Assembly: GCA_023539445.1 (NCBI GenBank)
Contig: JAKCEW010000003.1
Coordinates: forward strand, 2,250 to 66,249
DNA: 64,000 nucleotides
From: Candidatus Terraquivivens yellowstonensis
GTDB taxonomy: Archaea; Thermoproteota; Nitrososphaeria_A; Caldarchaeales; Wolframiiraptoraceae
Direction of reading: 5' to 3'
The position numbers were made by a program, and so were the translations under genes. Each line of letters starts with the position of its first letter. The first letter of the stretch is position 1. The notes under the pieces are model-generated. The model saw only the letters and a program-made list of their open reading frames with translations. It had not been told where the DNA came from and ran no database searches. Shown here one piece after another: positions 8,881-57,100 of this stretch.

Positions 8881-9351
8881 TTGCAAGATGTGAAGAGTCT
8901 TAAGATAAGGATACAGCATGACGACGTCTCCGTCGAGTTTGATGGAAATTATGAAGAGGTATGGATGAGCGTTAACAAATACCTTTCGGAGCTTTACCCA
9001 TCTCTCTCAATAGTAAAGAAGTTTCTTGGCGCTGTCGATGTCTCTCACATTATGTCCCTACTCTCGGGAAAAGCCCAGATAGTAAACGGCAGGATAATTG
9101 TTTCAGCTCAGGTGGATGCTAAGAAAAAGATAATCATATGCCTCGCGGCTGCATACGTGGGTAAGGTACTTGGGCTTTTGGAGAATGATGCGCTCTCTCC
9201 CAAAGAGGTTTCGTTAATCACAGGTTTAGAAGAAAGCGTTACCAGAGCTAGGCTAAGCGAGATGAGAAAGGCGGGTCTCGTCATAAAGGTTGACGGCGGA
9301 AGGTATGTTTTTAATACATCTGCCATCAACGTGCTGGCAGAGGAGGTCTGA
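8881..9351 (+). CDS. Uncharacterised small protein, paralog A: N-terminal beta-rich domain plus C-terminal winged-helix
   Basis: 156 aa. The C-terminal ARLSEMRKAGLVIKVDGGRYVFN is a typical wHTH wing. It is homologous along its whole length to the next ORF. Confidence 0.5.
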   Translation: MQDVKSLKIRIQHDDVSVEFDGNYEEVWMSVNKYLSELYPSLSIVKKFLGAVDVSHIMSLLSGKAQIVNGRIIVSAQVDAKKKIIICLAAAYVGKVLGLLENDALSPKEVSLITGLEESVTRARLSEMRKAGLVIKVDGGRYVFNTSAINVLAEEV

Positions 9352-9353
9352 TT

Positions 9354-9845
9354 ATGGGCGAGGAGATTATGAAAGTTTCAATACAGTATAAAGATGTCCG
9401 GGCAGATTTTGAAGGTAGGCCTGATGACGTTTACAGAAGTATCGTATCATTTATGGAGAAAGTGATACCTTCGTACTCACTTGCGAGCAAGATAAGCTAT
9501 TCTGTGGACCTTCAAAGCTTGATTGAAAAATTGAGGGATTACCTAGCATATAACCAAGCTGAGGGGGTCTTTTTGCTTAAACCTCTAAATGCGCTATCAG
9601 TTTCCGAGGCAATAATGCTTTTGTGTATAAAGAGGTACCTTGAGCATGGATTGGGTCTAGCAGAGTCCCCCTCCATAAATGCTTCGGAACTCGCGAAAAA
9701 CATAGCCAAGTCCGAGAAGACAATATCGGGAAAACTAAGCCTGCTTTTGCGGAAGGGCTATATAAGACGTCTGGATAGGGGAGATTACGTTATAACGATG
9801 TTAGGCATTAAAGAATTTGTGGAAGGCAAGGTCGAGAAAAAATAG
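9354..9845 (+). CDS. Uncharacterised small protein, paralog B (same architecture as 8881-9351)
   Basis: The N-terminus MKVSIQYKDVRADFEGRPDDVY aligns with LKIRIQHDDVSVEFDGNYEEVW of paralog A. The C-terminal wHTH reads LSLLLRKGYIRRLDRGDYVIT. Confidence 0.5.
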   Translation: MGEEIMKVSIQYKDVRADFEGRPDDVYRSIVSFMEKVIPSYSLASKISYSVDLQSLIEKLRDYLAYNQAEGVFLLKPLNALSVSEAIMLLCIKRYLEHGLGLAESPSINASELAKNIAKSEKTISGKLSLLLRKGYIRRLDRGDYVITMLGIKEFVEGKVEKK

Positions 9846-10301
9846 CTACTCGTTATTGGATTCGCTCTCTTCGGTTTCCACTTTCGCCGTTGATGCAGGT
9901 TGTGCTGAGTACAAGTATCTTCTGGGTCGGCCTATCCTAACTAAGACACCCTCTCTTACCATATCCAGTAAAACGTGGGCCACGGCGGTCGGATCATAAT
10001 GATGACCCCTTCTGGCCAATTCTGCCACAACTTCAGACAATGGCCTTGGTGTGGAAAACCACCCTTCCTTAAGCATGTTCTCCACCAAACCCCTACACGT
10101 AGACGTCTCAGCGGACCTCGTACGTTTTTGGGGTTCTGATTCGGGTTCTAATGTCTCTGAAACGCCGAGCGCTGCCATAACGTCCTTTATAGACTTCTCT
10201 AGCAGATCAGGAGGTGCCTCTATCTCCACGTTCGCCTTTCCTACCGTTATCTTGACCCTTATTCTTTCTTGAGACATGAGCAAATTACCCAAATTGCGCA
10301 A
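9846..10301 (-). CDS. Uncharacterised small protein, paralog C (third member, convergent orientation)
   Basis: N-terminal IRVKITVGKANVEIEAPPDLLEKSIKDV and C-terminal wHTH LARRGHHYDPTAVAHVLLDMVREGVLVRIGRPRRYLYS, ending in an acidic tail. Its stop codon abuts the stop of paralog B. Confidence 0.45.
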   Translation of the reverse strand: MRNLGNLLMSQERIRVKITVGKANVEIEAPPDLLEKSIKDVMAALGVSETLEPESEPQKRTRSAETSTCRGLVENMLKEGWFSTPRPLSEVVAELARRGHHYDPTAVAHVLLDMVREGVLVRIGRPRRYLYSAQPASTAKVETEESESNNE

Positions 10302-10316
10302 TATTTATAAGCACAT

Positions 10317-11387
10317 GTGTCCCTAAAGTTATTAGTGATGAAGCGGATGGGCGCACTCATAAGCACCGAGACCCCTTTTATTGAGAACTTCTTAGGGGTA
10401 TTTAAAGCATTTTCTAAGATGGGGCTGGGCTCGATGGAAAACCTAAGGAAAGCCTTGCCCGTCGTCAGTATTAATGGACTTGGACATCATATTGGCCATG
10501 ATGTTATGCTGGAGTTGGACAAGATGACCTCCGTCAGAGCCTACAAATTGAGGCCTTCAGGCAAGGCGTGCGATGTGATTGCATGCGATACCTCAGTCAT
10601 AAAGCTGGCTGAGGGACCTTTTGGCTACCTCGCCGCTCTGAGGGGGTCTGTGGTAAGGAGAAAAAAGTCTGGCGGTATCGAATCATGGATAATTGGCCCT
10701 CTCATCTTTTTCGTATCTTTCGACGATAACCTACCTTTACTCTCCTTTATGTCTGAGCTCGTGGATGGTCAGCCGCTTAGCGAAGACTTTGAGACGATAC
10801 ATAGAAGCATCAGCAGCTTACTCGAAAAATGGCTTCAACGTTCGTTAGCATCAACTTTTTCTGACTCGATACTACTGTTCGATGGTTCACTGACGGCAGG
10901 GCCAGCGGACAATTCCTTACAGCTGATTCGTGAGACGCTCAATGAGGCTGAACGAAACGGCAACGTTGTGCTTGCCTTTTCGAAATCAACACACTTATCC
11001 TATCTTGGAACTAGGATAACATCATTGGTACCAGACATGGACCCCCCGTGCGTAATTGATGTGAGCGATGCTGTATGCTCGTCCCCTAAAATCCACAAGC
11101 TCGGCAGGATACTCGTATCTCATCTATCCAGAACTTTCTTTCCATACAGGCTTGATGTGAGCGGGAAGGAAATAGGAGACGTCTTGCAAATAATTGGTAA
11201 CCTCTTAAGCAGCGATGCCTTGATATACGGCTACCCAGAAACCCTGCTATTAGCCCACAATTATTGCACCTTCAACAAGTTAGACGTGTTGGCGTTGCAG
11301 AAGTTGCTGAAGCAAGAATTTAACATAGATGCTTTCAACATAGGAGATGTGAGGAGTAGCCTTTTCAATCCTTTGGATGGTCATTAG
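10317..11387 (+). CDS. nurA: NurA-like 5'-3' nuclease
   Basis: 356 aa with D-x-S motifs (ACDTS, LLFDGSL) characteristic of the NurA RNase H-like fold. It lies immediately upstream of herA with a 2-nt gap. Confidence 0.55.
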   Translation: MSLKLLVMKRMGALISTETPFIENFLGVFKAFSKMGLGSMENLRKALPVVSINGLGHHIGHDVMLELDKMTSVRAYKLRPSGKACDVIACDTSVIKLAEGPFGYLAALRGSVVRRKKSGGIESWIIGPLIFFVSFDDNLPLLSFMSELVDGQPLSEDFETIHRSISSLLEKWLQRSLASTFSDSILLFDGSLTAGPADNSLQLIRETLNEAERNGNVVLAFSKSTHLSYLGTRITSLVPDMDPPCVIDVSDAVCSSPKIHKLGRILVSHLSRTFFPYRLDVSGKEIGDVLQIIGNLLSSDALIYGYPETLLLAHNYCTFNKLDVLALQKLLKQEFNIDAFNIGDVRSSLFNPLDGH

Positions 11388-11389
11388 AC

Positions 11390-12877
11390 ATGAAGATCTT
11401 TTCTAAGCAAAAGGATACGCTGGATATATTGGCATTTCCCTCAGAGATTGTGGTCGAGAAAGGGCAATATCTCGTGGTAAGTGAGGGGGACAAGTTCATG
11501 CTTGCTCAGGTGGTAGACGTAAGCTATGCTGACATTCCCGGTATACTAGAAGACATGTTACGAGAAGTTTCGTTAGAAATCGTGAATCATGAAAACATCT
11601 TCGACCCATTTGATATGGGATCACTAACCGTGATGATAAAGGAGGCAAGAATTGTAAGATGTAAGATAAGGTGTATCGTGGAAGGGGATAGAATTGTGCA
11701 TAATAGCTCATGGCTTCCTTCGAGGTTTAGGTCAAACATATCCGCTGCGGGAGCGGACTTGTTGAGGAGCGTGATGAAGCTAGCAGGTAAGCGAAAAATA
11801 CACATCGGAACAGTAGGAGGAGAAGATTTCTGGGTTGATGCAGAATCTTTCGATGGCAGACTGACTATAATAACTGGGAAGAAAGAGACTGGAAAGTCTC
11901 ACATAATGAAGTTGATATCGACCGCGTTGGTTGAGTATGGAGCCTTGGTTATAGTGTTTGACATTAATGGAGAATATGTAAACCTAAATAGAAGAGTTGA
12001 CGGAGGCCAGAGCAGCATAGCACTTCGGCACGAAGTACTTGAGCCTGGTAAGAACTTTAAAGTTAGAACAGAAGACGTCGGTCTCAGAACTTTTATGGAT
12101 ATATTGATACATGTTTACGACACGCCGTCAAGCAGTAGCCGAGAATTTTTTAGAATATGGAATGCTGTAAAGAGGAATAGAGGCAAAGTTACCCTCAAGG
12201 ATTTGATAGAGATTATTCAAAAGACGCAGTTACACGAGTCCGTTAAGGAAGCGTTAATGAGTAGGCTTATGGCAATAGAAGCTACTGGCATAATTACAGA
12301 TGATGAATGCGTAACATCCTTCGAGGACGTTGTCAAATGTATTGGTGGTAAAATGCTCGTAATCAACCTTAGAGATCTGTTGCCCTCTACAAGGAGGATG
12401 GTTGTCGAATATTTGCTCAGCAAACTCACCGAGTTACTGCAAGCAAGGAGGTTACCACCGATATTCCTCGTGGCTGAGGAGGCACACCTCTACCTAAGGG
12501 ATACCTATTGGGATGATATTGTGACAAGAATGAGACACTTAGGCTTATCGCCAATCTTCGTGACGAACCAACCCGATTCCATACCCGAGACGATATACAG
12601 ACAGGCAGACAACGTAATTCTTTTTAACTTCACCAACGAAGCTGATTTGGAGGCAATAGCAAAAACTTCGCGCATAGATTCTGAAAGCGTGAAGACCATA
12701 GCGGCTTCTTTACCCCCGCGTTATTGCCTACTCATAGGCTACTTGGTCAAGGACATACCCGTCGTGGTCAAAGTTAGAGAGATCGATGTGGAGACTATGG
12801 GAAAAACTAGGTTATTTTTTGAACTTTCCGATAGGCAACTACATATACCGAAAGTGGTGAGAGAACAAGTAGCATGA
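11390..12877 (+). CDS. herA: HerA-type FtsK/HerA-superfamily DNA helicase/translocase
   Basis: N-terminal HAS-barrel-like segment. Walker A TGKKETGKSH and Walker B FLVAEEAH. Its ~495 aa length is typical of archaeal HerA. Confidence 0.75.
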   Translation: MKIFSKQKDTLDILAFPSEIVVEKGQYLVVSEGDKFMLAQVVDVSYADIPGILEDMLREVSLEIVNHENIFDPFDMGSLTVMIKEARIVRCKIRCIVEGDRIVHNSSWLPSRFRSNISAAGADLLRSVMKLAGKRKIHIGTVGGEDFWVDAESFDGRLTIITGKKETGKSHIMKLISTALVEYGALVIVFDINGEYVNLNRRVDGGQSSIALRHEVLEPGKNFKVRTEDVGLRTFMDILIHVYDTPSSSSREFFRIWNAVKRNRGKVTLKDLIEIIQKTQLHESVKEALMSRLMAIEATGIITDDECVTSFEDVVKCIGGKMLVINLRDLLPSTRRMVVEYLLSKLTELLQARRLPPIFLVAEEAHLYLRDTYWDDIVTRMRHLGLSPIFVTNQPDSIPETIYRQADNVILFNFTNEADLEAIAKTSRIDSESVKTIAASLPPRYCLLIGYLVKDIPVVVKVREIDVETMGKTRLFFELSDRQLHIPKVVREQVA

Positions 12878-13497
12878 ATGATACCGTCAGCAAGTATCTG
12901 AAGATTTACGAAGAGAGACGCGAAGAGATAGAAGCTAGGCTTAGGGAATTTAAGGAAGTCCTACGAAAAAGCGATGAGGAGGTATTCGCGGAGCTTTGCT
13001 TTTGCATATGCACTCCTCAAACTAGAGCAAGGGCTGCGGACGCGGCAATATCGATTATGAAGGAAGAATCAACGTTACTCAACGGTGACGAGAAGTATAT
13101 AGCAGATATTTTAAGGAAAAACGGCGTTCGCTTCCCCGAGTCAAAGGCTAGATACATAGTCGCTGCGAGGGCGTATTTGAGGGCGTTAAAGAGCTTACCG
13201 TCGGATGCTTACAGGGCAAGAGAATGGCTTGTTAAAAACATAAAGGGCCTAGGTTACAAAGAGGCAAGCCATTTTCTGAGAAACATCGGTTATGAAGGGT
13301 TAGCGATTTTGGACAGGCATATACTGAGGGGTATGAAGGAGGTTGGGGTTATAAAAGAGGTGCCAAAAAATTTAACAAAAAGAACGTACCTAGAACTTGA
13401 AAAGAAGTTTATACAACTTGCTAATGATTTAGGTATGAGACCTGAAGCCCTTGACCTCGTCATGTGGGCTGATAAAACGGGGGAAGTGTTCAAGTAG
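12874..13497 (+). CDS. ogg: N-glycosylase/DNA lyase, Ogg2 family (8-oxoguanine DNA glycosylase)
   Basis: 207 aa. Contains ELCFCICTPQTRA (Ogg2 signature region), the HhH-GPD lysine in IKGLGYKEASHFLRNIG and the catalytic Asp in AILDRHI. It overlaps the herA stop codon by 4 nt. Confidence 0.65.
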   Translation: MNDTVSKYLKIYEERREEIEARLREFKEVLRKSDEEVFAELCFCICTPQTRARAADAAISIMKEESTLLNGDEKYIADILRKNGVRFPESKARYIVAARAYLRALKSLPSDAYRAREWLVKNIKGLGYKEASHFLRNIGYEGLAILDRHILRGMKEVGVIKEVPKNLTKRTYLELEKKFIQLANDLGMRPEALDLVMWADKTGEVFK

Positions 13498-13517: not shown

Positions 13518-14465
13518 ATGTTGAACAGCATTAAGATGAGTGAGGACCTCAAAAATCTTCTGTATAGCATACCAGAAATTGACGTTGAAAGTTTGCTAGG
13601 AAGCTATCAAAAACCTATGCGAGAATCCATCAGAATCAACACCCTAAAGGCTCGAGAAGAGGATGTATTATACATGTTAAAGGAGAAGGGTGTAGAACTT
13701 GAGAAGATACCTTGGGCGAGGTACGGTTATTGGGTCTTGAACGATGTCAATATCTCAAATACAATCGAACACATGCTCGGCCTTGTATACATTCAGGGTG
13801 CAGTCTCTATGGCACCAGTTGAAGTGTTATCACCTAAACCTGGCGAGCTCGTTCTGGACCTTTGTGCCGCTCCAGGTAGTAAAACTACACAAATAGCACA
13901 ATTTATGCAAGGAGAAGGTGTAATAGTCGCCAACGACGTGAATCTCAAAAGGATAAGGGCTCTCTCTTCTAATGTTCAGAGGTGCGGTATTATAAACTGC
14001 ATTATCACGCAGGCCGATGGGAGGAGGTTCCCATTGTGGGCTAAGGGATTTTTTGACAAAGTTCTCGTAGACGCACCATGCACATCGCTCGGCATAGTAA
14101 GTAAAGATTGGGGTGCTGCGAAAAAATGGAGCTTTCGGGCTTCCGAGCGGTTATCTAAGCTTCAGCTCAGCCTAGCCATATCCGGCTTCGAATGTCTGAA
14201 GGTTGGCGGCACGATGGTCTATGCCACATGCACACTCAGTCCACAAGAAAACGAATGGGTCATAGACCGCCTCATTGCAAGCAAACCAAACGCACGTCTG
14301 GAGAGCATAAATTTGGAGGGGTTAAAGATGAAAAAGGGACTTCTGGAATGGCAGCATGAGAAGTTTAATCCTGAGATTGAACGGTGCGTGAGAGTTTATC
14401 CGTATGAACATGAGGCTGAAGGATTCTTTATGGCGAAGATAGTGAAGGAAAGTGATGGCCCGTGA
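13518..14465 (+). CDS. NOL1/NOP2/Sun family RNA cytosine-C5 methyltransferase
   Basis: Motifs LDLCAAPGSKT, DAPCTSLG (PC motif IV) and TC motif YATCTLSPQENE. Confidence 0.75.
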   Translation: MLNSIKMSEDLKNLLYSIPEIDVESLLGSYQKPMRESIRINTLKAREEDVLYMLKEKGVELEKIPWARYGYWVLNDVNISNTIEHMLGLVYIQGAVSMAPVEVLSPKPGELVLDLCAAPGSKTTQIAQFMQGEGVIVANDVNLKRIRALSSNVQRCGIINCIITQADGRRFPLWAKGFFDKVLVDAPCTSLGIVSKDWGAAKKWSFRASERLSKLQLSLAISGFECLKVGGTMVYATCTLSPQENEWVIDRLIASKPNARLESINLEGLKMKKGLLEWQHEKFNPEIERCVRVYPYEHEAEGFFMAKIVKESDGP

Positions 14466-22750: not shown

Positions 22751-25045
22751 TTGATGGAAAAAGTTAGGGCCGAGATCAGGGTTTCGGGCATAGTCCAAGG
22801 AGTGGGTTTCAGGCCGTTCATCTACAGAATCGCCGTTAATATGGGACTTAAAGGGATGGTTCAGAATCTAAAAGATGCGACCGTTAGGATAGTCGTAGAA
22901 GGGCCCGAGTCCAGCATAAAGTCCTTTTTGGATGCCATGATTAAGGAGAAGCCGCCTTTAGCCCGTATAACCAAAGTTGATGTGAGTTACTCAGAACCGA
23001 AGAACGATTTTAATGATTTCAAGATAATGATGAGTTCGGAGCAAGGCTCGGTTGCGGGTTCTGTGATACCGGCGGATGTTGCAATATGCGATGACTGTAT
23101 CAGAGAACTCTTGGACCCTAATGACAGAAGGTTCGGCTACTTTTTTATAACATGCACGAATTGCGGGCCGAGGTTCACCGCTATATTGGATACGCCATAC
23201 GATAGACACAATACATCAATGAGAGATTTCCCGATGTGTAAATCATGTAGTTCCGAATATGAGGACCCTCTGAATAGGCGATTTCATGCTCAAACTATCG
23301 CATGTCCCGAGTGCGGTCCGATTGTTTATCTAACAACTAATGATGGAGAATTGATTGAATGTAAAGACCCCATAAAGGAAGCCGCCAGGCTTATCGATGA
23401 GGGATACATAGTGGCGGTAAAAGGCAACGGAGGCTTTCATGTGGCAACGGCAACGACGATCTCGGAGCCCATAATAAGGCTTAGGAAGGTTAAGCATAGA
23501 CGACAAAAACCTTTTGCAATAATGGCTAAAGATTTGGAGAGCATAAAAACTTTCGCTGTAGTTAGCGACCAAGAAGAAGAGCTGCTCAAATCCCCAGCGC
23601 ACCCCATCGTTTTATTACGTAAAAGCGAGGATTACTACCTATCTGAGGAAATCGCGCCGGGTCTTCACAACATAGGCGTAATGCTACCTTATACTGGCCT
23701 TCATTTTCTCCTACTGCTTAACAGTAAGGAGCCAGCCTATGTGATGACGAGTGCAAACCCTTCAGGTGAGCCGATAGTTATACAAAATCAAGAGGCCTAC
23801 ATAAGGATCGGAAAGGATGTTGACTACATGCTCCTCCACAACCGAGAAATCGTTAATAGATGTGACGATTCTGTGGTAAGAATAGTTGACGGCTCTACTA
23901 GCTTTATACGTCGTTCGAGGGGCTATGCGCCGGAGCCGATTGTTTTACCGCATGAATATGGTAAAAACGTCTTTGCTTTAGGTGGTGAGCTTAACGTTGC
24001 CGCTTGCATCCTCATGGGCGATAGGGCTTTCTTAACGCAACATATTGGAGACGTAGAATGCGTGGAAACCTATGAATTTTTGAAATCGGCAATCCATCAC
24101 CTAGCTAGGCTTATTAGGGCACAACCAGAGTTGATAGTCCACGATCTACACCCAGGGTTCCAGACAACTAGGCTTGCGAAGGAGCTGGCTGAAAAGATTG
24201 GCGTGCCGACGTTGGCCGTCCAGCACCATCATGCGCACGTTGTCTCGGTAATGGCAGAATATGGTTTAGAGGAGGCCATAGGAATAGCATGTGACGGGTT
24301 CGGTTATGGTAGCGATGGCTTGGCGTGGGGTGGTGAGATTCTTTTATGTGATGGTAACGGTTACCACCGTTTGGGACATCTGGAGAACCATCCAATGCCG
24401 GGTGGCGACCTAGCTGCAAAATATCCAGCAAGGATGGCCGCAGGAATACTGTTTGGGTCAAATATATGCGAGGAGTGGTTATTTTCGAATACCGATAAGC
24501 TTCCGAGGGGAAGGGAAGAGGCAGAGATATTATTGAAACAACTTAAGAGCGGAAGGAACATAAAGACTTCGAGTGCTGGTAGAGTTTTGGACAGTGTCGC
24601 GACCATATTAGGTGTATGCCATGAAAGGACTTACGAGGGCGAGCCTGCTATGAAGCTCGAATCCAAGGCGATAGGTGGTTCAGACATCCTAGGTCTGAAG
24701 CCAGAAATAAAAGGTAGGGTCTTGAATACGAAGCACATGGTAGAATCAATTGCTGAGATTACAATGAAAGGGCTGGATCCAAAGAAAGTGAGAGACCTTG
24801 CCTTCTCGGCCCAAAATTATTTGGCGTTAGGCTTAGCTGAGTTTGCCTCGGAAATTGCAATCAGTGAAGGGGTGAGAAATGTTGTTTTCACTGGCGGCGT
24901 GGCTTACAACGAGCAAATAACGGCGACTATAAGACGAATTGTTGAGAACAATGGATTAAGATTCTACACGAACACGAAAGTCCCACCCGGCGATGGTGGA
25001 CTCTCGCTTGGTCAAGCAGTAATCGCTGCTAAACTAAGCGGCTAG
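22751..25045 (+). CDS. hypF: [NiFe]-hydrogenase maturation carbamoyltransferase HypF
   Basis: 764 aa with an acylphosphatase domain, two Zn-finger CxxC pairs (CDDC, CTNCGPR, CKSC, CPECGP), a YrdC-like domain and a Kae1-like domain. Confidence 0.9.
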   Translation: MMEKVRAEIRVSGIVQGVGFRPFIYRIAVNMGLKGMVQNLKDATVRIVVEGPESSIKSFLDAMIKEKPPLARITKVDVSYSEPKNDFNDFKIMMSSEQGSVAGSVIPADVAICDDCIRELLDPNDRRFGYFFITCTNCGPRFTAILDTPYDRHNTSMRDFPMCKSCSSEYEDPLNRRFHAQTIACPECGPIVYLTTNDGELIECKDPIKEAARLIDEGYIVAVKGNGGFHVATATTISEPIIRLRKVKHRRQKPFAIMAKDLESIKTFAVVSDQEEELLKSPAHPIVLLRKSEDYYLSEEIAPGLHNIGVMLPYTGLHFLLLLNSKEPAYVMTSANPSGEPIVIQNQEAYIRIGKDVDYMLLHNREIVNRCDDSVVRIVDGSTSFIRRSRGYAPEPIVLPHEYGKNVFALGGELNVAACILMGDRAFLTQHIGDVECVETYEFLKSAIHHLARLIRAQPELIVHDLHPGFQTTRLAKELAEKIGVPTLAVQHHHAHVVSVMAEYGLEEAIGIACDGFGYGSDGLAWGGEILLCDGNGYHRLGHLENHPMPGGDLAAKYPARMAAGILFGSNICEEWLFSNTDKLPRGREEAEILLKQLKSGRNIKTSSAGRVLDSVATILGVCHERTYEGEPAMKLESKAIGGSDILGLKPEIKGRVLNTKHMVESIAEITMKGLDPKKVRDLAFSAQNYLALGLAEFASEIAISEGVRNVVFTGGVAYNEQITATIRRIVENNGLRFYTNTKVPPGDGGLSLGQAVIAAKLSG

Positions 25046-25121: not shown

Positions 25122-25934
25122 ATGGGCTGGTCTGAAAAGACAAATGGTAACCTAACAATTAGCGAGAGAGTTAAAAAGGCGATGCAAAATCTGGGTCTTA
25201 CAGATTATGAGGTTAGGGCATACCTTCCGCTTATCCAAATGGGACCGCTGACCGCTAGTGAGTTGAGTAACATAGCCGAGATACCCTACTCGAAGATTTA
25301 CGAAGTGCTGGGAAGCTTGGAAGAAAAGGGATGGGTCAAGGTTGGAGGTGGAAGGCCTGCGAAATATTATGCAAAATCTCCCGTTACGGCTGTTGAAACC
25401 ATGAAATTGAAGCTTGAAGAAAAACTCCAACAAAATGGTGAGATAATAATCTCTGAGCTCATGCCAATCTTCGAGAATAGGTGGGCTAAGGAAAAGCCCG
25501 ATATCTGGATATTGAGGGGGGAACAGAATATCTTAGCTAAGCTGAAGGAACTCATCGCTAATTGCGAGCGGGAGCTTCTATTAGCGACCCCATCCCTTCC
25601 TAAGGAAGTTTTACATGCACTGTTACCGTTTTTCATAACGATCAAGGGTAAGAACGGCAGGATACAAATAATGCTCACACCGGACACTGACCAACAAACC
25701 TTGAAAAAGTTAGCTGAGGTTGCAGAGGTCAGAATTAGGGAACATATGTTTGGCTGCGGTGCAATCCGTGATTCGAAGGAGGTTATGATAATATTTTCGG
25801 CCGAGAATGGAAAGAGGCCGGCCATAGCCATATGGTCGGAGCACATAAGTTTGGCAAAGTTTGCTAGGGATTACTTTGATTATCTTTGGAATAGCGCATA
25901 CGTCGTAAAAAAGTTTAAAGCCAACAATGAATAG
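25122..25934 (+). CDS. TrmB-family transcriptional regulator
   Basis: N-terminal wHTH LTDYEVRAYLPLIQMGPLTASELSNIAEIPYSKIYEVLGSLEEKGWV, with a TrmB-like C-terminal domain. Confidence 0.7.
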   Translation: MGWSEKTNGNLTISERVKKAMQNLGLTDYEVRAYLPLIQMGPLTASELSNIAEIPYSKIYEVLGSLEEKGWVKVGGGRPAKYYAKSPVTAVETMKLKLEEKLQQNGEIIISELMPIFENRWAKEKPDIWILRGEQNILAKLKELIANCERELLLATPSLPKEVLHALLPFFITIKGKNGRIQIMLTPDTDQQTLKKLAEVAEVRIREHMFGCGAIRDSKEVMIIFSAENGKRPAIAIWSEHISLAKFARDYFDYLWNSAYVVKKFKANNE

Positions 25935-29208: not shown

Positions 29209-30846
29209 TTACTCAGATTCGCTCTTCTTTTCCTCTTCACTCTTCTTTTCTGTGAACTTCTTTCTCGAAGCTGCGACGACGTCGTCGATACGCAATATCA
29301 TCGCGGCCGCCTCTAGAGACGACTTCAGCGCATTCTCTTTGACCCTCAGCGGCTCTAGGACGCCCAGCTTTAGCATATCATCGACCTTGCCAGTGAATAG
29401 GTTAATGCCATAGCTTCTGCCGTCATTCTCGTGTGCATGTCTTAATGCAGTCATTATTTCAACGGGCTCGAGGCCTGCATTCTCTGCGAGCGTCCTCGGT
29501 ATAACTTCTACGGCGTCTGCAAAAGCGAGGAATGCCAGCTGTTCCTTACCCGTTAGCTTGCCCATCTCTTTTCGTATAGCTTTGGCTATCTCTACTTCCG
29601 TAGCACCGCCACCCGGTACTATCTTGTTATTCTCCACGAGGTTGATGACGTTCATTATGGCATCGTTTAAAGCCCTCTCAGCTTCATCCATCTGCCTCTC
29701 CAGACCAGCACGAATCAGTATGGAAACCGCACCCGGGTTCTCGCATTGCTCAACGAAAACTAGCCTATCCTCACCTATCTTCCTCTCCTCTACCAGCCCG
29801 GCTTTCCCTAGGTCTTTCTCAGTGAGGCTTTCGATGTTTGTAACTATTCTTCCTCCTGTAGCCTTTGCCAGCTTTTCCATGTCAGACCTCTTAACACGTC
29901 TTACGGCAAGTATGCCGGCCTTCGCTAGGAAGAACTGAGCGGCATCATCTATACCCTTCTGACACACCACGACGTTCGCGCCAACAGAAACTATCTTGTC
30001 AACCATCTCTTTGAGAATGTTAGTCTCTTCGTCTAAGAATGCCTTTATCTTGGATGGGTCTCTAATTCTGATCTCAGCGCTGAATTCTGTCTTTTCTATC
30101 TCTAACGGCGTATCAAGCAAGGCTATCCTGGCATTCTCTACCCTCTTCGGCATTGCAGGATGGACGACCTCTTTGTCAATCACGATACCCCTTATAAGCT
30201 CTGACTCCATAAGACTCTTGCCGACCTTCTTTACGATCTGTATGTCGTCCTTGTCAGCCACTAGCTTGCCATCTCTTTCCTTTATGACCGAAAGGACTGC
30301 CTCTATTGCTAGGTCTGCTATGTGGTCGAGTGCATACCCTAGTGATTTGCTACTGAGCGCCGTCTTTACGACCTTCTTGAGAGTTTCTTTGTCCTTCAGG
30401 TCTACGGTTAGCGTTATATCTTGAAGGGCTCTATAAGCGACGTCCAATGCTTTCCTGTAACCGCTGATTATCGTACTCGGGTGGATTTTCTGCTCCATGA
30501 GTTCCTCAGCCTTTTTCAGGAGCTCACCCGCAAGGATGACCGCAGTGGTCGTGCCGTCGCCAACTGTTTCGTCCTGCGCCTTCGCAACCTCCACTATCAT
30601 CTTAGCGGCAGGATGTTCAACATCTACCTTCTTGAGTATGGTTGCACCGTCATTCGTGACAACGACGTCACCTAGGCTATCTACCAGCATCTTATCCATT
30701 CCCTTCGGTCCAAGCGTACTCTTGACCATTTCAGCGATTATCTTAGCAGCTAGAATGTTATTGTGCTGAGCTGGCCTACCCCTCGTCCTCTGAGTTCCTT
30801 CCTTTAATATCAATATAGGTTGCCTTGTCATAGACATGAAGATCAC
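29209..30846 (-). CDS. Thermosome (group II chaperonin) subunit
   Basis: 545 aa. ATP-binding GDGTTT, VPGGGA, the equatorial/apical layout and a charged EEKKSE tail are all typical of thermosome. Confidence 0.9.
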
Positions 30847-31259: not shown

Positions 31260-32306
31260 TTGGACAGAATAACGATTGCCCATGGCGCGGGAGGCGTCGT
31301 GATGCAATCTCTAATCAAGGACTTTATACTTAAGAACCTTAGCTGGGGAAACGCCGAAGTCCCTCTGGAGGCGCTGGACGATGCTGCTGTAGTGGATGGC
31401 ATCGTGATAAAGTCGGATTCCTATACAGTTAAACCACTGTTCTTTCCGGGCGGTGATATAGGAAGGTTAGCGGTTTCAGGAACCGTGAATGACATATCCA
31501 TGCTGGGAGCTGAGCCTGTTGCGCTCGCGATGGGATTTGTTTTGGAAGAAGGGTTTCCGTTGTCGGATTTTGAGAGGATAATTTTGAGCATAAGACAAAC
31601 GTGCATAGAGGCTGACGTGTTCGTAGCAACAGGTGACACGAAGGTTGTGGAAAGGGGTGCTTTGGATAAGTTCATCATAAACTCGTCTGGTATCGGTAGA
31701 AGGCATGCTGCGTTAGATTACAACCTTAGCGTCGTTAGACGCTACAGGAATCTCGAGACAAGGTGGCTTCTTGACTCCAACATCAGGCCGGGCGATAAGA
31801 TAATAGTTTCTGGAACTATCGGCGACCATGGTATAGCCATACTTTCCTCAAGAGAAGGCTATGGGTTCGATACTGTCATAAAGTCTGACGTTGCACCTCT
31901 TAACAAAATGGTAAAGAAAGCTTTGGAAGTTGGCGGAGTCGTTGCCATGAAGGATCCAACAAGGGGTGGTCTATCAAATGCCCTCAACGAATGGTCCCAA
32001 AAGTCGGGGGTCGGACTTTACATAAAGGAGGAGAAAATACCGATAAGAGAGGGAGTTAGGGCTGCCTGTGAAATGTTGGGTATAGACCCGCTCGAGGTGG
32101 GAAACGAAGGAAAGGCGATAATCGCCGTAGTGCCTCATATGGCTGAGGCAGTGCTGGAGGCTATACGTGAGACACCAGAAGGTAGGGATGCAGAGATAAT
32201 AGGCGAGGCCACCGATAAGTATGAGCACGTTGTGCTCGAGACAATAGTGGGTGGCAGGAGGCTTCTACCTCCGCCAATAGGCGATCCTGTTCCAAGGATT
32301 TGTTGA
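31260..32306 (+). CDS. hypE: Hydrogenase maturation factor HypE
   Basis: 348 aa with a PurM-like fold and the invariant C-terminal PRIC motif. Confidence 0.9.
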   Translation: MDRITIAHGAGGVVMQSLIKDFILKNLSWGNAEVPLEALDDAAVVDGIVIKSDSYTVKPLFFPGGDIGRLAVSGTVNDISMLGAEPVALAMGFVLEEGFPLSDFERIILSIRQTCIEADVFVATGDTKVVERGALDKFIINSSGIGRRHAALDYNLSVVRRYRNLETRWLLDSNIRPGDKIIVSGTIGDHGIAILSSREGYGFDTVIKSDVAPLNKMVKKALEVGGVVAMKDPTRGGLSNALNEWSQKSGVGLYIKEEKIPIREGVRAACEMLGIDPLEVGNEGKAIIAVVPHMAEAVLEAIRETPEGRDAEIIGEATDKYEHVVLETIVGGRRLLPPPIGDPVPRIC

Positions 32307-32357
32307 ACTGTGCTCCAAATATGTTGATGTGGGTCTCTCATAATTTGAGTTTAATCT

Positions 32358-33443
32358 TTATAAGTGCACCATGTGAGTTGCCCAGATTCTGCATGTGCCC
32401 TCGATGGATACCATGCATGGCCCGACGGGTTTATTTGGTTTGCATACCTTCATGTATAGCGGGCACTGTGTTGGCTTGATCCTCCCAAGCATAATCTCGG
32501 CGCACCTACATCCCGGATGCATCTCGCTGACGTAATCTACATTCTTCAAACCGTACTTGTATCTCGCGTCGTAATCCTTAAACTCTTCCTTCAATGCGAA
32601 GCCTGTACGTTCTATCATACCTATGCCCCTCCAATGAGCGTCGGTTAGATCGAATACTTGATTAATTGTTTGCATCGCCCTAACATTACCTTCCCATGTA
32701 ACGGACCTCGAATACTGGTTCAGCACTTCCGCCCTGCCCTCCGATATCTGTTTAATCAACATGAAAATAGACATTAAAACATCCACGGGCTCGAAACCGG
32801 AGGCGACGACTGGTATTCCGTATTCCTTGGCCAAGGGCTCGTAAGCCTTCAAGCCGCTTATCGTCGTGGCATGACCTGGTGCTATTACGCCATCCATTTC
32901 CAGCTTGCCCCGTGAGTAAAGGTTGATGACCGCGGGTGGTACATACCTATGTGAGTTGAGTATAGAGAAGTTTTTAGGTGGCGTCCGGAGTATGTGTAGT
33001 GCGGTAATTGGTGCTGTAGTCTCGAACCCTACTGCGAAGAAAACGACTTCCTTGCTTTGATCTGATTCCGCTAGCTTAAGCGCGTCGAGTATGCTATAAA
33101 CGATTTTCACACTACCGCCTTCCGATCGCACACCCTCTAGGGAATATTTGGTACCGATAGACCTTGATACGTCTCCAAAGACCGCAACAGTCTTGCCTTC
33201 GAGTGCGAGCTCTGCCGCTTGGTCAATATCCAAAGCGGGGGTTATGCATACAGGACAGCCAGGTCCTGCGATAAGCTCTATGTTATCTGGGAGGAGCGAG
33301 CGCAAACCATAATGAATGATTGTCCATTCATGCGTACCGCATACATGGCATATCCTGACCGGTTTCTTAATGGGAATATCCTTGATTTTGCGCACAAGCG
33401 CCTCTGCTAACTCTTTATTCCTGAATTCCTTCAAAAAGCTCAA
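32358..33443 (-). CDS. hypD: Hydrogenase maturation factor HypD
   Basis: 361 aa with the conserved CGxH, GPGCPVC and C-terminal FeS cysteines. Confidence 0.9.
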   Translation of the reverse strand: MSFLKEFRNKELAEALVRKIKDIPIKKPVRICHVCGTHEWTIIHYGLRSLLPDNIELIAGPGCPVCITPALDIDQAAELALEGKTVAVFGDVSRSIGTKYSLEGVRSEGGSVKIVYSILDALKLAESDQSKEVVFFAVGFETTAPITALHILRTPPKNFSILNSHRYVPPAVINLYSRGKLEMDGVIAPGHATTISGLKAYEPLAKEYGIPVVASGFEPVDVLMSIFMLIKQISEGRAEVLNQYSRSVTWEGNVRAMQTINQVFDLTDAHWRGIGMIERTGFALKEEFKDYDARYKYGLKNVDYVSEMHPGCRCAEIMLGRIKPTQCPLYMKVCKPNKPVGPCMVSIEGTCRIWATHMVHL

Positions 33444-38514: not shown

Positions 38515-39612
38515 TCAGATATCGGTTGGTGATATGTTCATCATAGCTACCTCTACACTTCCCGTCTTTCCCCTTTGTACGAACATTTTGTCCGGAAATC
38601 TGATTGCTAAGTTGTTGAACACATCATGAACCATGCTTGGTGTTGAGAATAGTTTTCTTTCTAGCAAAAGGAAAACACAAAGCCTTTCCAGCATGTTAAG
38701 GTTTACCGCGTTCCCTTTACTCGTAAACCTACCATATGCTTCAATTAGCATGCTTGCTACATCGAGCCTACTAGCTTTCGTCAGACCCGGAACCATGAGC
38801 GGTGCTAGATCTTTTATGACTTCTTCCTCGATTCTTTTCAAGGAAACCTTAAGGTAACCTTCGAATAGCTCTTTACACTTAACAAAGCTCTCCTCTGCGG
38901 AATACTTACCCCTACCAGATCTTTTGAGAATGCCCAAATCTACGAGCCACTCTAATCTAGGCGGAGCTATATGCCTGTATTTGGCATACTGGCTGCTCTT
39001 TATCCATTCGCTTTTATTCTCTAAACTGAGTCTTTTCATCTTGAATTTTTCTGCCTCGGCTATCTCCTTCTCCACCATGCTCCTCTTCTTCGCATCAACC
39101 TTTGTTACAATACTCTTCAAAGCAGATGGGTAAAGCTCCTCCATCATGTAATTCATCGCTTCCATCCTAGTAAACTCCTCACGTTCTAAAGCCCAAATTA
39201 TAGTATTCAGCAAAAATGGAAAGTCCGCGGAGATTAAAGTGGTGAAGAACAGCATTTTTTCAACGGGATTTAGCGTCAATAACTCTTCGTGTGTAATTTG
39301 TTTGCTTTCGTGGAGGAATTTTGTTGCGGAGTTGAGTCTTACGTAAATCCTGCCGATGTCTCCCAAAGTCTGCGTCTTTCTATCGAGTATGTTCATCTCT
39401 GCCGCAACGGAGACGTAATTTCTTGCGTTTACCGGTCTAGTGATTATCCCTATGGGTTTTATCGGAAGCTGCGGCGGCCCGATGTTGCGTATGAAGTCGT
39501 AAAGATTGGATGCCAAGAAGTCGAAGCTTTTCGGTGTGTCCTCCTCTGCGAGGCAAGCTATAAGTCTCATGTAACCCAGTCTGCAAACATCTCCATGTGT
39601 TTCCAGAATCAT
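38515..39612 (-). CDS. Hypothetical protein, candidate restriction-endonuclease partner of the upstream DNA methyltransferase
   Basis: 365 aa with no recognisable motif. It is translationally coupled to the methyltransferase by a 4-nt overlap. Confidence 0.3.
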   Translation of the reverse strand: MILETHGDVCRLGYMRLIACLAEEDTPKSFDFLASNLYDFIRNIGPPQLPIKPIGIITRPVNARNYVSVAAEMNILDRKTQTLGDIGRIYVRLNSATKFLHESKQITHEELLTLNPVEKMLFFTTLISADFPFLLNTIIWALEREEFTRMEAMNYMMEELYPSALKSIVTKVDAKKRSMVEKEIAEAEKFKMKRLSLENKSEWIKSSQYAKYRHIAPPRLEWLVDLGILKRSGRGKYSAEESFVKCKELFEGYLKVSLKRIEEEVIKDLAPLMVPGLTKASRLDVASMLIEAYGRFTSKGNAVNLNMLERLCVFLLLERKLFSTPSMVHDVFNNLAIRFPDKMFVQRGKTGSVEVAMMNISPTDI

Positions 39613-40808
39613 GCAAAAACCTCCATCGGCACCTTAGCCCAAGCGACAGGCTCGTCGTTGGGTATGGGATTACCTTTGTGGAGTTCTAGTATCCTCTCTC
39701 GGCTCACACCTTCCTCTTCTTTTATATACATAAGGTGCTTGTTGGACTTTGGTATAGAGTCCGAAATCAATCTAGCGACGGTAAAGCCTACGGTTTCAGC
39801 TATCGGTGCTATCATCTCCGCCATGTTGATGTAGTAGCCGTTCAGCCTCACGTCACCAACAACCACAAAACAGGCTGAGTCGTCCTTTAAGACCCTAAAC
39901 ATCTCTTTCAGGGATTCGTACATGAAAATTTTAAATTTCTGCTTCGATTCTGATTGAAATAGCTTACTCTTCACCTCTAGGTAATCATATCCTAAAAACC
40001 ATAATCTCAGCCAGTTGTCCCAAGCATAGGTCTGCATGTTGAAATAGGGCGGAGACGTAACTATCAAGTTAACGCTTTCATCCTCTAGTGGTAGATTCCT
40101 AGCGTCTTCCATCGTCGCTATGCCTCTAATCTTCGGCAGACCGTCTTCTAAAACCCTTTCGGCCTTCATGAGTAGGCACTTCAATACGTCCCTCTTGGGT
40201 TTTCTTAAGCCGTTCTTCTTGATAAAACGCCGTATATACTTTGGAGACATCGAGAAGGCGTGAGAACACGGTACGCTCAAGTGCATTTTGGTAGGGCCGT
40301 GGAGTATTCCGCACATGAGTGCTTTTATGAAATTTGCAAGGTCTGAATCGTCGTCCATCAATATATCCCTTATCGCCAATATCTGCTTAAGCGTAGATTT
40401 GCTAAAGAACACGCGGACGTCGTCGCTTATTTCGTCAACGTCATAGCTTTCCGGGTCCCACTTTGCCCTTGTCTTGCATATCCATTCTTTTACGCAATCC
40501 AAAGTAACTGGGTTCACTTTAGCTCTCGTTATAACATATGCCTCTGGTGCCAAATCGTTGCCTATTCCGATTCTTCCATTCAGACAGGCCTCAAGGGGCA
40601 AGGTTCCCTTTCCAGAGAAAGGGTCAAGAACAACATCACCACGCCTAGAGTACCTTTTTACGAAGTAATGAGCAAGAGCGGGAGGGAACGAGCCAGTTCT
40701 GGAACATATCCTATGAAGGCTCGAGCCCCAGCCATCGCCTGCATACTTCCAAGAATCATGTATCTCTGTGCTTAAAACCGTGAGGTAGTTTTTCATCGAA
40801 GGGCGCAC
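39609..40808 (-). CDS. DNA methyltransferase, N4-cytosine/N6-adenine type (PF01555-like)
   Basis: Motif X/I HRICSRTGSFPPAL...VVLDPFSGKGT, then a ~170-aa variable region, then catalytic motif IV TSPPYFN. SPPY is typical of m4C methyltransferases. Confidence 0.75.
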   Translation of the reverse strand: MRPSMKNYLTVLSTEIHDSWKYAGDGWGSSLHRICSRTGSFPPALAHYFVKRYSRRGDVVLDPFSGKGTLPLEACLNGRIGIGNDLAPEAYVITRAKVNPVTLDCVKEWICKTRAKWDPESYDVDEISDDVRVFFSKSTLKQILAIRDILMDDDSDLANFIKALMCGILHGPTKMHLSVPCSHAFSMSPKYIRRFIKKNGLRKPKRDVLKCLLMKAERVLEDGLPKIRGIATMEDARNLPLEDESVNLIVTSPPYFNMQTYAWDNWLRLWFLGYDYLEVKSKLFQSESKQKFKIFMYESLKEMFRVLKDDSACFVVVGDVRLNGYYINMAEMIAPIAETVGFTVARLISDSIPKSNKHLMYIKEEEGVSRERILELHKGNPIPNDEPVAWAKVPMEVFA

Positions 40809-44223: not shown

Positions 44224-44658
44224 GTGGAAATGGATGCGTGGCCTGATTCAAACGTTGGGGATTTGGTTTCCCCGAGAGATGAGAGCGTCGTATTAAGTTT
44301 CAAAGCCGGTGCAACGATATCAAAAGGAGACCCCGTGTATCTAATGGATCGAGATACCGTAGCACCAGCAACTGCACCGACGAATTGTATAGGAATAGCC
44401 TTGGAGAATGCCTCAGAAGGTGACTATGTGCCAGTATGCGTGTTGGGTGTCGTGAAAGTCGTGGCGGGCGCGGCAATAACCATGGGTCAGGCTGTGTATG
44501 GTGCGGATTCATCAAAACGCATACTTCCGCTGACCGACCAAGATGTAAATGAAAGTGGGGTCAATACGTATACAATATACTATGCTAGGAGGCTCGGCAT
44601 CGCTCTCGATAACTTCACGGCCCCTGGCGATACTGGTAGAATCCTCGTGGTGAAGTGA
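44224..44658 (+). CDS. Head-decoration-like beta protein (tentative)
   Basis: 144 aa, Gly/Val/Ala-rich core GIALENASEGDYVPVCVLGVVKVVAGAAITMGQAVY. It sits immediately upstream of, and is translationally coupled to, the capsid-like gene. Confidence 0.35.
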   Translation: MEMDAWPDSNVGDLVSPRDESVVLSFKAGATISKGDPVYLMDRDTVAPATAPTNCIGIALENASEGDYVPVCVLGVVKVVAGAAITMGQAVYGADSSKRILPLTDQDVNESGVNTYTIYYARRLGIALDNFTAPGDTGRILVVK

Positions 44659-44659
44659 T

Positions 44660-45622
44660 ATGAGTTGGCAGGACATAATGCCCAAAAAGTTTGAGACACT
44701 ATACAGCGATCCAAAGATTAGAGATGAGATCAACGAGCTGTTGCCAAAATTCTCGGCAAATCCCATATTTACCCGCATCTCAGAGCTGTTTCCATCCGGC
44801 TACGAGTCCATAACAAGCAGCATGCTTGGTGCAATAGCCAGAATGCATGACGTGGTGGTCGAGGCAGCCCAGCCCAACTTGATAGCAAGGCAACTGGTTC
44901 AGGTCATAAGGACTTCAGACCCTATTGTGAGATTCCCCAAAGCGAAGAGGGCGAAGGCATATAGGAGTGCAGAGTTGGCTCAAGTGTGGATTACGGGCGA
45001 GAAATACGAGGTGCAGGATGTAAAAGCCGACTTAGAGATAAGGGCGGCTGCTGAATGGACGAGGAAGTTCCTCGAGGATGCCCCATGGAGCGTGTTAGAA
45101 AGACAGGCTGCGGAGCTGGGTAGGGCCGTCGGCCTACTTGAGACGGAGGAGGTTATAGGAATGTTCATGCGGATACCCGAAGACGAGCTCGCTGGAGGTT
45201 CTGAGGTCATCGCCGTCAACGATGGAAAGCTTAGTTACGAGGATGTTGTAAACGCTAGGAGGGCCGTTCTGAAGGAGATGTTCCATCCAGACTGCCTGCT
45301 TGTCAGTGTATCTAGAGAGGCCGACCTTTGGAAGGATGATAAGTTCATACATAGCTTTTACTTCGGCGAGACTGTCGATAAACAGAGGGGTGTGCTGGGC
45401 AACTTTCTAGGCCTAGAGCTAATAGTTGACAACAGCGGCTCGGTCCCGGATAATAAAGCATTTGTTATCGATAGAAAGGCGGCCGGTGTGCTACTTGTCA
45501 GACGGGACTTAACGATAAGTAGCTATGAGACGATGAAGGACGAGGTCTATGGCATAATGGCAAGCGAACGAATAGGCATGGAAATATTGCGTTCAAAAGC
45601 CGTAGCAAGGATAAGCATCTGA
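44660..45622 (+). CDS. HK97-fold major capsid/encapsulin-like protein (tentative)
   Basis: 320 aa. The C-terminal DLTISSYETMKDEVYGIM resembles the conserved DL[ST]IGYE..EKD..V ending of encapsulin/HK97 A-domains. Position after a decoration-like gene supports the call. Confidence 0.4.
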   Translation: MSWQDIMPKKFETLYSDPKIRDEINELLPKFSANPIFTRISELFPSGYESITSSMLGAIARMHDVVVEAAQPNLIARQLVQVIRTSDPIVRFPKAKRAKAYRSAELAQVWITGEKYEVQDVKADLEIRAAAEWTRKFLEDAPWSVLERQAAELGRAVGLLETEEVIGMFMRIPEDELAGGSEVIAVNDGKLSYEDVVNARRAVLKEMFHPDCLLVSVSREADLWKDDKFIHSFYFGETVDKQRGVLGNFLGLELIVDNSGSVPDNKAFVIDRKAAGVLLVRRDLTISSYETMKDEVYGIMASERIGMEILRSKAVARISI

Positions 45623-56821: not shown

Positions 56822-57100
56822 CTACACATTTGAAACTTTATTCAGACCCGCACCCAATGTTGTACAATCTACCTCCAGCACCACGGGCAAGCTAAATAGC
56901 TTTCTCTTTAGCCACTCGGCCTTTTCAGGTTTTAACGATACGGACATCGTAAGGAGCTTAACGTTATCCATTCCTGATTCGCATACCTCGGCGCTTATTA
57001 GCTTTGCCTGAGCTTGCCTCGTGGTCAGAAGCACCTTGATGACGGCTTCCAGAGAGTCCTCAACCAGTACGCTAAACACGTATGCGCGCATGTACATCAA
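56822..57100 (-). CDS. ilvN: Acetolactate synthase small (regulatory, ACT-domain) subunit, copy 1
   Basis: ACT-domain start YVFSVLVEDSLEAVIKV. It is downstream of and overlapping ilvB. Its last ~23 codons lie outside the duplicated segment. Confidence 0.75.
   Translation of the reverse strand: MMYMRAYVFSVLVEDSLEAVIKVLLTTRQAQAKLISAEVCESGMDNVKLLTMSVSLKPEKAEWLKRKLFSLPVVLEVDCTTLGAGLNKVSNV

Follow-up and report, generated by a model that had tools for sequence, protein, structure and literature searches.

The NurA nuclease and the HerA ATPase are essential in model thermophilic archaea, and we know of no description of how the pair is regulated outside Sulfolobales. A four-gene operon, herA-mre11-rad50-nurA, has been described for archaeal thermophiles; both HerA and NurA are absent from some archaea, for example Haloferax, and stand-alone pairs exist in bacteria (PMC7776575). 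Here we examine a stretch of 64,000 nucleotides (nt) from Candidatus Terraquivivens yellowstonensis (contig JAKCEW010000003.1 of assembly GCA_023539445.1, positions 2,250-66,249 of the forward strand), called the window below, in which nurA and herA are followed by ogg2, a gene for an archaeal-type 8-oxoguanine (8-oxoG) DNA glycosylase. The best matches are hot-spring Caldarchaeales (Aigarchaeota), with 78-93% identity to 'Ca. Terraquivivens' and 38% to Caldiarchaeum. A first-pass annotation of this DNA had started from the premise that herA and nurA sit with mre11 and rad50 in most archaea, a statement that is too broad, because the operon was described for thermophiles (PMC7776575).

The archaeal HerA-NurA pairs known from Sulfolobus, Pyrococcus and Thermococcus (4d2i, 2ygk, 3tal, 9x1n) share with the window a NurA with D-x-S, D-G-S and YP...AH motifs, a DUF87/HerA protein with a Walker A motif and an EEAH Walker B motif, and adjacent, tightly spaced genes in a thermophilic archaeon; some members of the window's family also lie near mre11-rad50. 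They differ in that the window family is very divergent (NurA reaches the NurA structures in the PDB at an E value of ~1, and HerA scores 46-51 bits against NCBIfam cutoffs of 800-970), in that the order here is nurA before herA with no mre11-rad50 between or beside them, and in the presence of a divergent winged helix-turn-helix (wHTH) gene with a conserved putative operator. Bacterial pairs (Deinococcus radiodurans, 7f6d, and Thermus thermophilus) are likewise two-gene nurA-herA units of similar structure outside the mre11-rad50 operon (PMC7776575), but they belong to another domain of life and another sequence clade, whereas the window pair appears to be part of the vertically inherited core set of Nitrososphaeria and Bathyarchaeia. 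Defence systems (TdpAB, 8wfd/8wet; Sir2-HerA, 8j4u; DUF4297-HerA, 9c1m; and mad8 of MADS) have the same HerA-type ATPase core, and TdpB is the top fold match of our NurA model; unlike them, the window pair lacks a partner gene for an effector or for modification, does not sit in an island-like context and bears no signature of horizontal transfer, and its HerA is a better sequence match to repair HerA. The Ogg2 of the window, finally, matches the Ogg proteins of M. jannaschii (3fhf/3knt) and Sulfolobus (3fhg) over its full length, including Lys129 and Asp147, and only its place after herA differs.

We think it more likely than not that the locus encodes a regular NurA-HerA end-processing machine under winged-helix control through a palindrome, with ogg2 co-expressed by position in part of Caldarchaeales. 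By analogy with characterised complexes, and judging from family membership, HerA would act as a hexamer that feeds duplex DNA by translocation into a dimer of NurA, and NurA would degrade strands to leave 3' tails for RadA-mediated recombination. The pair would represent a divergent, vertically inherited version of HerA/NurA common to Nitrososphaeria and Bathyarchaeia, and its transcription would start at a compact divergent promoter that also serves a small winged-helix gene, whose product would most likely regulate both itself and nurA-herA by way of the palindrome next to the TATA box. In part of Caldarchaeales ogg2, and then an RNA methyltransferase gene and a PUA gene, would have come to lie downstream and would probably be co-transcribed, so that the outcome would be co-expression of two DNA-repair functions and not an 'oxidative-lesion' machine whose parts are fused in structure or mechanism. 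If this picture holds, the HerA/NurA of a large archaeal clade (Aigarchaeota-type lineages, other Nitrososphaeria and Bathyarchaeia) is of a divergent kind missed by standard equivalog models, the 'thermophile four-gene operon' rule fails for these thermophiles, and there is a concrete candidate regulator and operator for the control of end resection. The features of the locus, with the evidence for each, are the following (ORF, open reading frame; aa, amino acids).

8881..9351, + strand: small winged-helix protein, paralogue A ('wAB' type); ORF, weak wHTH Pfam matches, profile matches
9354..9845, + strand: small winged-helix protein, paralogue B ('wAB' type); ORF, family clustering
9846..10277, - strand: 'wDiv', divergent small winged-helix protein; 143 aa from the ATG at 10277, ORF to 10301
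10288..10312, no strand: putative divergent promoter/operator; palindrome plus BRE/TATA-like element, function suggested by layout
10317..11387, + strand: nurA, divergent NurA nuclease; Pfam NurA, fold match, invariant catalytic-type residues
11390..12877, + strand: herA, FtsK-HerA superfamily ATPase/translocase; DUF87, profile match to SsoHerA 4d2i, Walker A/B
12874..13497, + strand: ogg2, archaeal-type 8-oxoguanine DNA glycosylase and apurinic/apyrimidinic (AP) lyase; Ogg-HhH, NCBIfam equivalog, MjaOgg 3fhf
13518..14465, + strand: RsmB/F-type RNA 5-methylcytosine (m5C) methyltransferase; Methyltr_RsmB-F 180 bits, RsmF_N 59 bits
14462..14920, + strand: PUA-domain protein, a separate gene and the last of the co-directional cluster; weak PUA matches

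A divergent NurA-HerA pair

For the comparative evidence, each species was represented by one genome, and a pattern scan of these genomes returned 546 stretches encoding relatives, and the best 80 of these were taken with flanks of 10 kilobases (kb). The survey comprises 81 species-level, non-redundant loci from Caldarchaeales, other Nitrososphaeria and Bathyarchaeia. Window proteins were mapped onto these loci, 1458 neighbouring ORFs were called (crudely, as the longest ORF) and clustered, and gene-order maps were drawn; 77 loci have a scorable gene downstream of herA and 74 have sequence upstream of nurA, and these numbers serve as the denominators throughout.

The product of 10317-11387 is a divergent but genuine NurA with a predicted RNase H-like NurA fold. 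It matches Pfam NurA (PF09376) over residues 87-316 with 30.4 bits against a cutoff of 21; neither the NCBIfam models nor a PDB search with the single sequence gave a match, and the family profile reached Sulfolobus NurA in the PDB at E ~1 only, with the DGSL and GYPxxLxxAH motifs still aligned to SsoNurA. Because the sequence searches of the PDB were too weak, structure prediction was needed. The AlphaFold 2 (AF2) model, built from 32 homologues, has a mean predicted local distance difference test score (pLDDT) of 79.7 and a predicted template modelling score (pTM) of 0.81, and the top PDB structures found with it by Foldseek are TdpB (8wfd_G), SsoNurA (2ygk), the NurA of Tko (9x1n_G), that of Dra (7f6d_G) and that of Pfu (3tal), with E values from 9e-8 to 1e-4 and template modelling (TM) scores of ~0.4-0.5 for these NurA-type matches, while EndoV and PIWI domains rank after them. 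Invariant in the 32 homologues are D91-x-S93, D189-G-S191, Y306-P-E308 and H314, and E170 is conserved in at least 90% of them. Thus, Pfam score, predicted fold and invariant residues agree with the NurA-like nuclease with D-x-S motifs that the first-pass annotation had proposed, and the doubt which it had raised, that the product might not have a NurA fold at all, is answered by a model that lies closest to NurA-type nucleases. By family membership, the protein would act as a Mn2+-dependent 5'-3' exo/endonuclease that docks on HerA as a dimer. The gene is already annotated as NurA in public metagenome-assembled genomes (MAGs). Since its homologues have 344-350 aa by gene call, and a public contig with a sequence identical to that of the window (L091) has the same gene called with 346 aa, the true start is probably the ATG at 10347 or that at 10338 and not the GTG at 10317.

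The protein encoded by herA contains the Pfam DUF87/HerA central domain (57.5 bits against a cutoff of 23.2), and its Walker A motif GKKETGKS (G163-K169-S170) and Walker B motif AEEAH (E363-E364-A365-H366) are both invariant in the family. The best PDB match of the family profile is Sulfolobus HerA (4d2i, E 4e-15, residues 119-474), followed at lower rank by Sir2-HerA, DUF4297-HerA, Thermococcus HerA and TdpA. The two genes keep company throughout the survey, with nurA directly followed by herA in 81 of 81 loci, usually with a 4-nt overlap.

To gauge how the pair has been inherited, its divergence can be set against that of GatD and GatE, encoded at the same loci. In Terraquivivens, HerA is 80-94% identical to the window protein; the figure drops to 51-56% for other Nitrososphaeria and to 43-48% for Bathyarchaeia, and the corresponding values for GatD/GatE are 82-95%, 55-64% and 48-56%. 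HerA thus diverges at about the rate of GatD/GatE while the locus stays fixed, indicating that the gene is inherited vertically at a housekeeping site. The neighbours of nurA-herA are gatDE, the wHTH genes, ogg2 and rsmF, and the guanine-cytosine content of the locus is unremarkable. These observations bear on the possibility, also raised in the first-pass annotation, that we are dealing with a second, specialised pair or a defence-type pair (of the TdpAB, Sir2-HerA, DUF4297-HerA or MADS-like kind) that would accompany a canonical repair operon located at another site of the genome. Four observations speak for it: the NurA model is closest to TdpB of TdpAB (8wfd_G, E 9e-8), the best PADLOC match of HerA is mad8 with 71.6 bits, the NCBIfam equivalogs for repair HerA are not reached, and the search for another copy covered the window and its 10-kb flanks rather than the whole genome. 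However, SsoNurA and other repair NurA structures match the model almost equally well, and the HerA profile is nearest to the repair HerA of Sulfolobus, above Sir2-HerA, DUF4297-HerA and TdpA. The PADLOC matches of HerA concern the ATPase core only, PADLOC returned no match for NurA, and there are no defence effector or modification genes nearby. In 81 species the pair keeps its place among housekeeping genes and diverges much as GatD/GatE do, and members of the family lie beside mre11-rad50 in Bathyarchaeia. We therefore hold a defence role or a specialised second pair to be very unlikely; nothing in the window and its 10-kb flanks points to a second copy, and we read the pair as the regular end-resection machinery of its clade rather than as a defence module.

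That the pair stands apart from mre11 and rad50 in this genome is borne out over the whole region searched. Pfam scans of the large ORFs across the 64-kb window found neither gene, tblastn with Bathyarchaeia Mre11 and Rad50 (from locus L086) gave no match in the window, and public contigs, which lengthen the window by 10 kb on each side, add transport, metabolic and replication genes only. The absence of mre11/rad50 holds over a region that begins ~20 kb upstream of nurA and ends 60 kb downstream of it, including the immediate upstream context in which the annotation had suggested that they might yet be found. None of the 81 surveyed loci has mre11/rad50 within 10 kb of nurA-herA. A regular-expression scan for Mre11/Rad50 motifs in the 1458 neighbouring ORFs also gave nothing, but such a scan misses the motifs of this clade (DGSHD; GGLGCGKSS), and tblastn replaced it. 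Literature on Aigarchaeota, Bathyarchaeota and Terraquivivens provided background only, and we found in it no gene inventory for HerA, NurA, Mre11 or Rad50.

Loci in which the two pairs of genes do meet come from Bathyarchaeia or resemble them. At L086, L088 and L089 a nurA-herA pair of the same family lies 0.65-3.5 kb upstream of mre11-rad50, with HerA 46-48% and NurA 31-34% identical to the window proteins; L088 and L089 are Bathyarchaeia contigs. That some Bathyarchaeia have mre11-rad50 in the neighbourhood of this family points to an ordinary role at double-strand breaks, and it is this context that weighs most in the choice between repair and defence. The Mre11 and Rad50 of Bathyarchaeia themselves fall far below the equivalog cutoffs of NCBIfam (Mre11 has 121 bits where 600 are required, Rad50 198 where 700 are), so the low scores of HerA and NurA reflect the divergence of the clade and not paralogy. 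In another Bathyarchaeia genome (L090), mre11-rad50 stands alone, with no herA or nurA of any kind adjoining. In our reading, the pair is usually uncoupled from mre11-rad50 in Nitrososphaeria and Bathyarchaeia; some Bathyarchaeia retain a loose linkage, and Caldarchaeales have lost it.

Two of these loci are of interest in their own right. L086 (GCA_054386335.1, JBQSHP010000227.1) is a 5-kb contig in a MAG labelled Freyarchaeota (Asgard), yet its order nurA-herA-Nudix-mre11-rad50 is typical of Bathyarchaeia, whose proteins share 74-76% identity with the Mre11 of this contig, and it may have been mis-binned. L088 contains within 15 kb an adjacent RmuC gene, mre11, a rad50 that is unusually short at 695 aa, and a gene for a DNA ligase, forming a loose DNA-repair neighbourhood.

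Winged-helix genes and the divergent promoter

The gene that accompanies nurA-herA most faithfully lies on its other side. The divergent wDiv gene is directly upstream of nurA in 62 of the 74 loci, and in 9 further loci, all from Bathyarchaeia, wAB-type genes take this place on the same strand as nurA, with 4-nt overlaps in L042 and L066, so that a gene of the wHTH family stands directly upstream of nurA in 71/74 loci in all. The real conserved partner of nurA-herA is this small winged-helix gene, rather than ogg2. A protein of 143 aa in public data (P0121) is 100% identical to wDiv, and the start of the gene is probably at 10277 and not at 10301. The protein has no Pfam or NCBIfam family match; its AF2 model comprises a beta-hairpin (residues 6-21), a helix (23-36), a disordered linker and a wHTH domain (61-125).

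The relatives of wDiv make up a family of small proteins (130-190 aa) with an N-terminal beta-hairpin/helix and a C-terminal winged helix, of which 3-5 paralogues occur by nurA-herA, often after gatD-gatE. The family of wAB paralogue A recurs beside nurA-herA in 44 loci, and further paralogues (f12, f14 and f34) lie within a few kb of the pair in other lineages. Profile comparison with hhalign gives a probability of homology of 99.2% for wAB and f12, a Bathyarchaeia family, and of 96.7% for wDiv and f14, with a weak 56% for wDiv and wAB, and the C-terminal domains of the family profiles match the winged helices of transcription regulators in the PDB. The spread of the family, which corresponds to no Pfam or NCBIfam entry, covers Nitrososphaeria and Bathyarchaeia, with related genes at L014, L017-L021, L024, L028, L033, L088 and others.

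The start codons of wDiv and nurA are separated by a gap of ~60 nt, in which a palindrome, TTGCGCAA (10294-10301), abuts an element resembling a B recognition element (BRE) and TATA box, CAATATTTATAA (10299-10310), placed ~30 nt from both start codons. The corresponding motif, CA[AC]HAYTTAWAW, has one copy in the 64-kb window, and in 1.35 Mb of related loci 65/81 copies are found just upstream of nurA and on the nurA strand. Palindromes flank the element in all clades; the flanking sequence is TGCTCAAnTTGAGCA in other Nitrososphaeria and TTGTGCA-N9-TGCACAA in Bathyarchaeia. Such a layout would fit a pair of divergent, leaderless transcripts and an operator on the side of the BRE. A search of the window for a wider regulon found no more copies of the promoter/palindrome than expected by chance, and no co-variation between operator half-sites and the recognition helix of the wHTH proteins was evident. 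The promoter element is conserved at the nucleotide level between archaeal classes and is almost exclusive to the region upstream of nurA.

We regard wDiv as a probable local regulator or partner of nurA-herA. The abundance of its paralogues leads to the more ambitious proposal of an undescribed larger machine or regulon, in which the 3-5 winged-helix paralogues would be DNA-binding adaptors or damage-responsive regulators that replace the tight link to Mre11-Rad50 in most of the clade. The near-constant presence of a wHTH gene directly upstream of nurA is in keeping with this proposal, as are the close grouping of wAB, f12, f14 and f34, a few kb apart, in Nitrososphaeria as well as in Bathyarchaeia, the homology that hhalign detects between paralogues, the overlaps of wAB with nurA in L042 and L066, the N-terminal beta-hairpin/helix module found in all paralogues, and operator-like DNA conserved across classes. 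On the other hand, a small divergent wHTH gene with a palindrome at its promoter is how a simple local transcription factor is classically arranged; the paralogues accompany gatD-gatE as well, and inherited synteny may thus account for part of their clustering; and recognition helix and operator do not evidently co-vary. We consider the adaptor or regulon proposal unlikely. A related idea, to which we give a small but real chance, is that Nitrososphaeria and Bathyarchaeia share an undescribed control or adaptor layer consisting of the small winged-helix family (3-5 paralogues per genome) and a conserved promoter-operator dedicated to the NurA-HerA of the clade, a layer that in part of Caldarchaeales would also drive Ogg2. 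If this were true, base-excision repair of 8-oxoG and end resection would stand under one damage-responsive switch in part of Caldarchaeales.

Ogg2 and the genes that follow it

The third gene is clearly a bona fide Ogg2, as judged from its sequence. The product of 12874-13497 scores 205.7 bits with Ogg-HhH and 228.4 bits with the NCBIfam equivalog for N-glycosylase/DNA lyase (NF002305), above the cutoff of 183, and it matches M. jannaschii Ogg (3fhf) at E 7e-41 with the catalytic residues K129 and D147 aligned; 3knt is a K-to-Q mutant at the position aligned with K129. The identification as an Ogg2-type 8-oxoguanine glycosylase made in the first-pass annotation is therefore upheld, and the 4-nt overlap that it reported between herA and ogg2 can be read in the sequence as ATGA. 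The spacer between nurA and herA is 2 nt. The co-directional run of genes extends past ogg2, the last gene of the operon as first annotated: the methyltransferase gene starts 20 nt past ogg2 on the same strand, and the PUA gene overlaps it by 4 nt. By the criterion of spacing, the co-directional cluster consists of five genes, and two of these have no relation to DNA repair.

The RsmF-type methyltransferase and the PUA domain are encoded here by two overlapping genes and are not fused, an arrangement that is kept in relatives of the Caldarchaeum, Pelearchaeum and HR01 types and is therefore not a frameshift artefact.

Gene order downstream of herA varies among the relatives. The gene directly after herA is ogg2 in 10/77 loci, all of them from Caldarchaeales (Terraquivivens, Caldarchaeum, Pelearchaeum and HR01), and in each of these ten the genes for the RNA methyltransferase, the PUA protein, a glycosyltransferase and an arginase are kept as well. 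In other Caldarchaeales, among them Geocrenenecus and Benthortus, this place is taken by a glmS-like gene in convergent orientation, with GATase and SIS domains; 35 Bathyarchaeia loci (including L005/L027, L021, L088 and L089) have a convergent gene for a Nudix hydrolase, and the remaining loci have unrelated genes. We considered whether the Nudix gene might be MutT, in line with an 8-oxoG theme, and rejected this, as the gene is convergent and scores 48.5 bits against a MutT equivalog cutoff of 97.9. Because ogg2 follows herA in so few loci, and always together with the rsmF-PUA-glycosyltransferase-arginase block, its adjacency is lineage-specific synteny and not a conserved functional triad.

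The nurA-herA-ogg2 group had been put forward as a meaningful unit, a HerA-NurA machine fused at operon level to a base-excision enzyme and possibly dedicated to oxidative damage or clustered lesions. Ogg2 would incise at 8-oxoG and the coupled NurA-HerA would process the resulting nicks, breaks and blocked ends, which would explain the translational coupling. The overlap of herA and ogg2 agrees with such a unit, the order of the three genes is indeed kept between several genera of Caldarchaeales whose Ogg2 proteins are only 49-56% identical, and the Nudix gene of the Bathyarchaeia offers a weak hint of a theme of nucleotide sanitation. Against this, 67/77 relatives, including Geocrenenecus, Benthortus, SKYB24 and DT_Bin_20 within Caldarchaeales, do not have ogg2 at that position, and the conservation of order, which always extends to the unrelated genes of the block, is the same signal that plain synteny gives and cannot be separated from it. 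The Nudix gene lies outside the operon and below the MutT cutoff, and there is no fusion, shared domain or co-variation between the proteins. The tight packing of the three genes and the conservation of their order across genera are borne out; a dedication to oxidative damage finds no backing in the comparison, and we judge such a dedicated unit to be quite improbable. The position of ogg2 next to the pair is no evidence for a new combined repair machine. Its adjacency would matter only if functional coupling existed, and the comparative data give no reason to expect coupling.

The interpretation that we prefer, a regular NurA-HerA machine under local winged-helix control with ogg2 co-expressed by position, has points of its own to contend with. 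The HAS-barrel, which the first-pass annotation had listed together with the Walker motifs, is a weak Pfam match in 2/22 members of the HerA family (best E 0.031) and gives no match for the window protein; the translocase is supported by DUF87 and its invariant Walker A/B motifs, and the barrel is a tentative assignment. The window HerA also fails to reach the NCBIfam equivalogs for repair HerA, NF040937 and NF040819, with 45.7 bits for the former (cutoff 800) and 31.7 bits for the latter (cutoff 970), and its probable orthology to characterised HerA is argued from context and best-hit logic. The search for mre11 and rad50 took in the ~20 kb upstream and 60 kb downstream of nurA, and the 81 surveyed loci, as the best 80 of 546 relatives, are skewed to close clades. 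Three to five paralogous wHTH genes by a two-gene operon exceed the needs of a simple repressor, and their regulatory role is putative. Co-transcription of the cluster is likewise deduced from spacing and overlaps, and ogg2 could have an internal promoter of its own, since a TATA-like CATATA (12843-12850) lies 25-32 nt ahead of its ATG and recurs in the Terraquivivens relatives.

Other features of the window

Several other genes of the window deserve mention. At 38515-40808 on the minus strand, an ORF of 365 aa without a Pfam match overlaps by 4 nt a gene for a DNA N6/N4 methyltransferase (399 aa), and the two may be a restriction-modification pair. At 44224-45622 on the plus strand, an ORF of 320 aa shows a weak, below-cutoff match to the HK97-like Pfam family Phage_capsid (E 2.4e-4) and has an ORF of 144 aa directly ahead of it; this region could represent an encapsulin or a prophage remnant. 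Hydrogenase maturation genes occur at 22751-25045 and 31260-33443, namely hypF, an AIR-synthase-type gene resembling hypE, and hypD, with the gene for a thermosome subunit (29209-30846) between hypF and the hypE-like/hypD genes and a gene for a TrmB-type regulator (25122-25934) after hypF. Finally, two tandem paralogous genes on the minus strand (57072-58829 and 59260-61014) encode acetolactate-synthase-like thiamine-pyrophosphate enzymes of 585 and 584 aa, and a gene of the 2-isopropylmalate/homocitrate synthase type (61193-62731) adjoins them.

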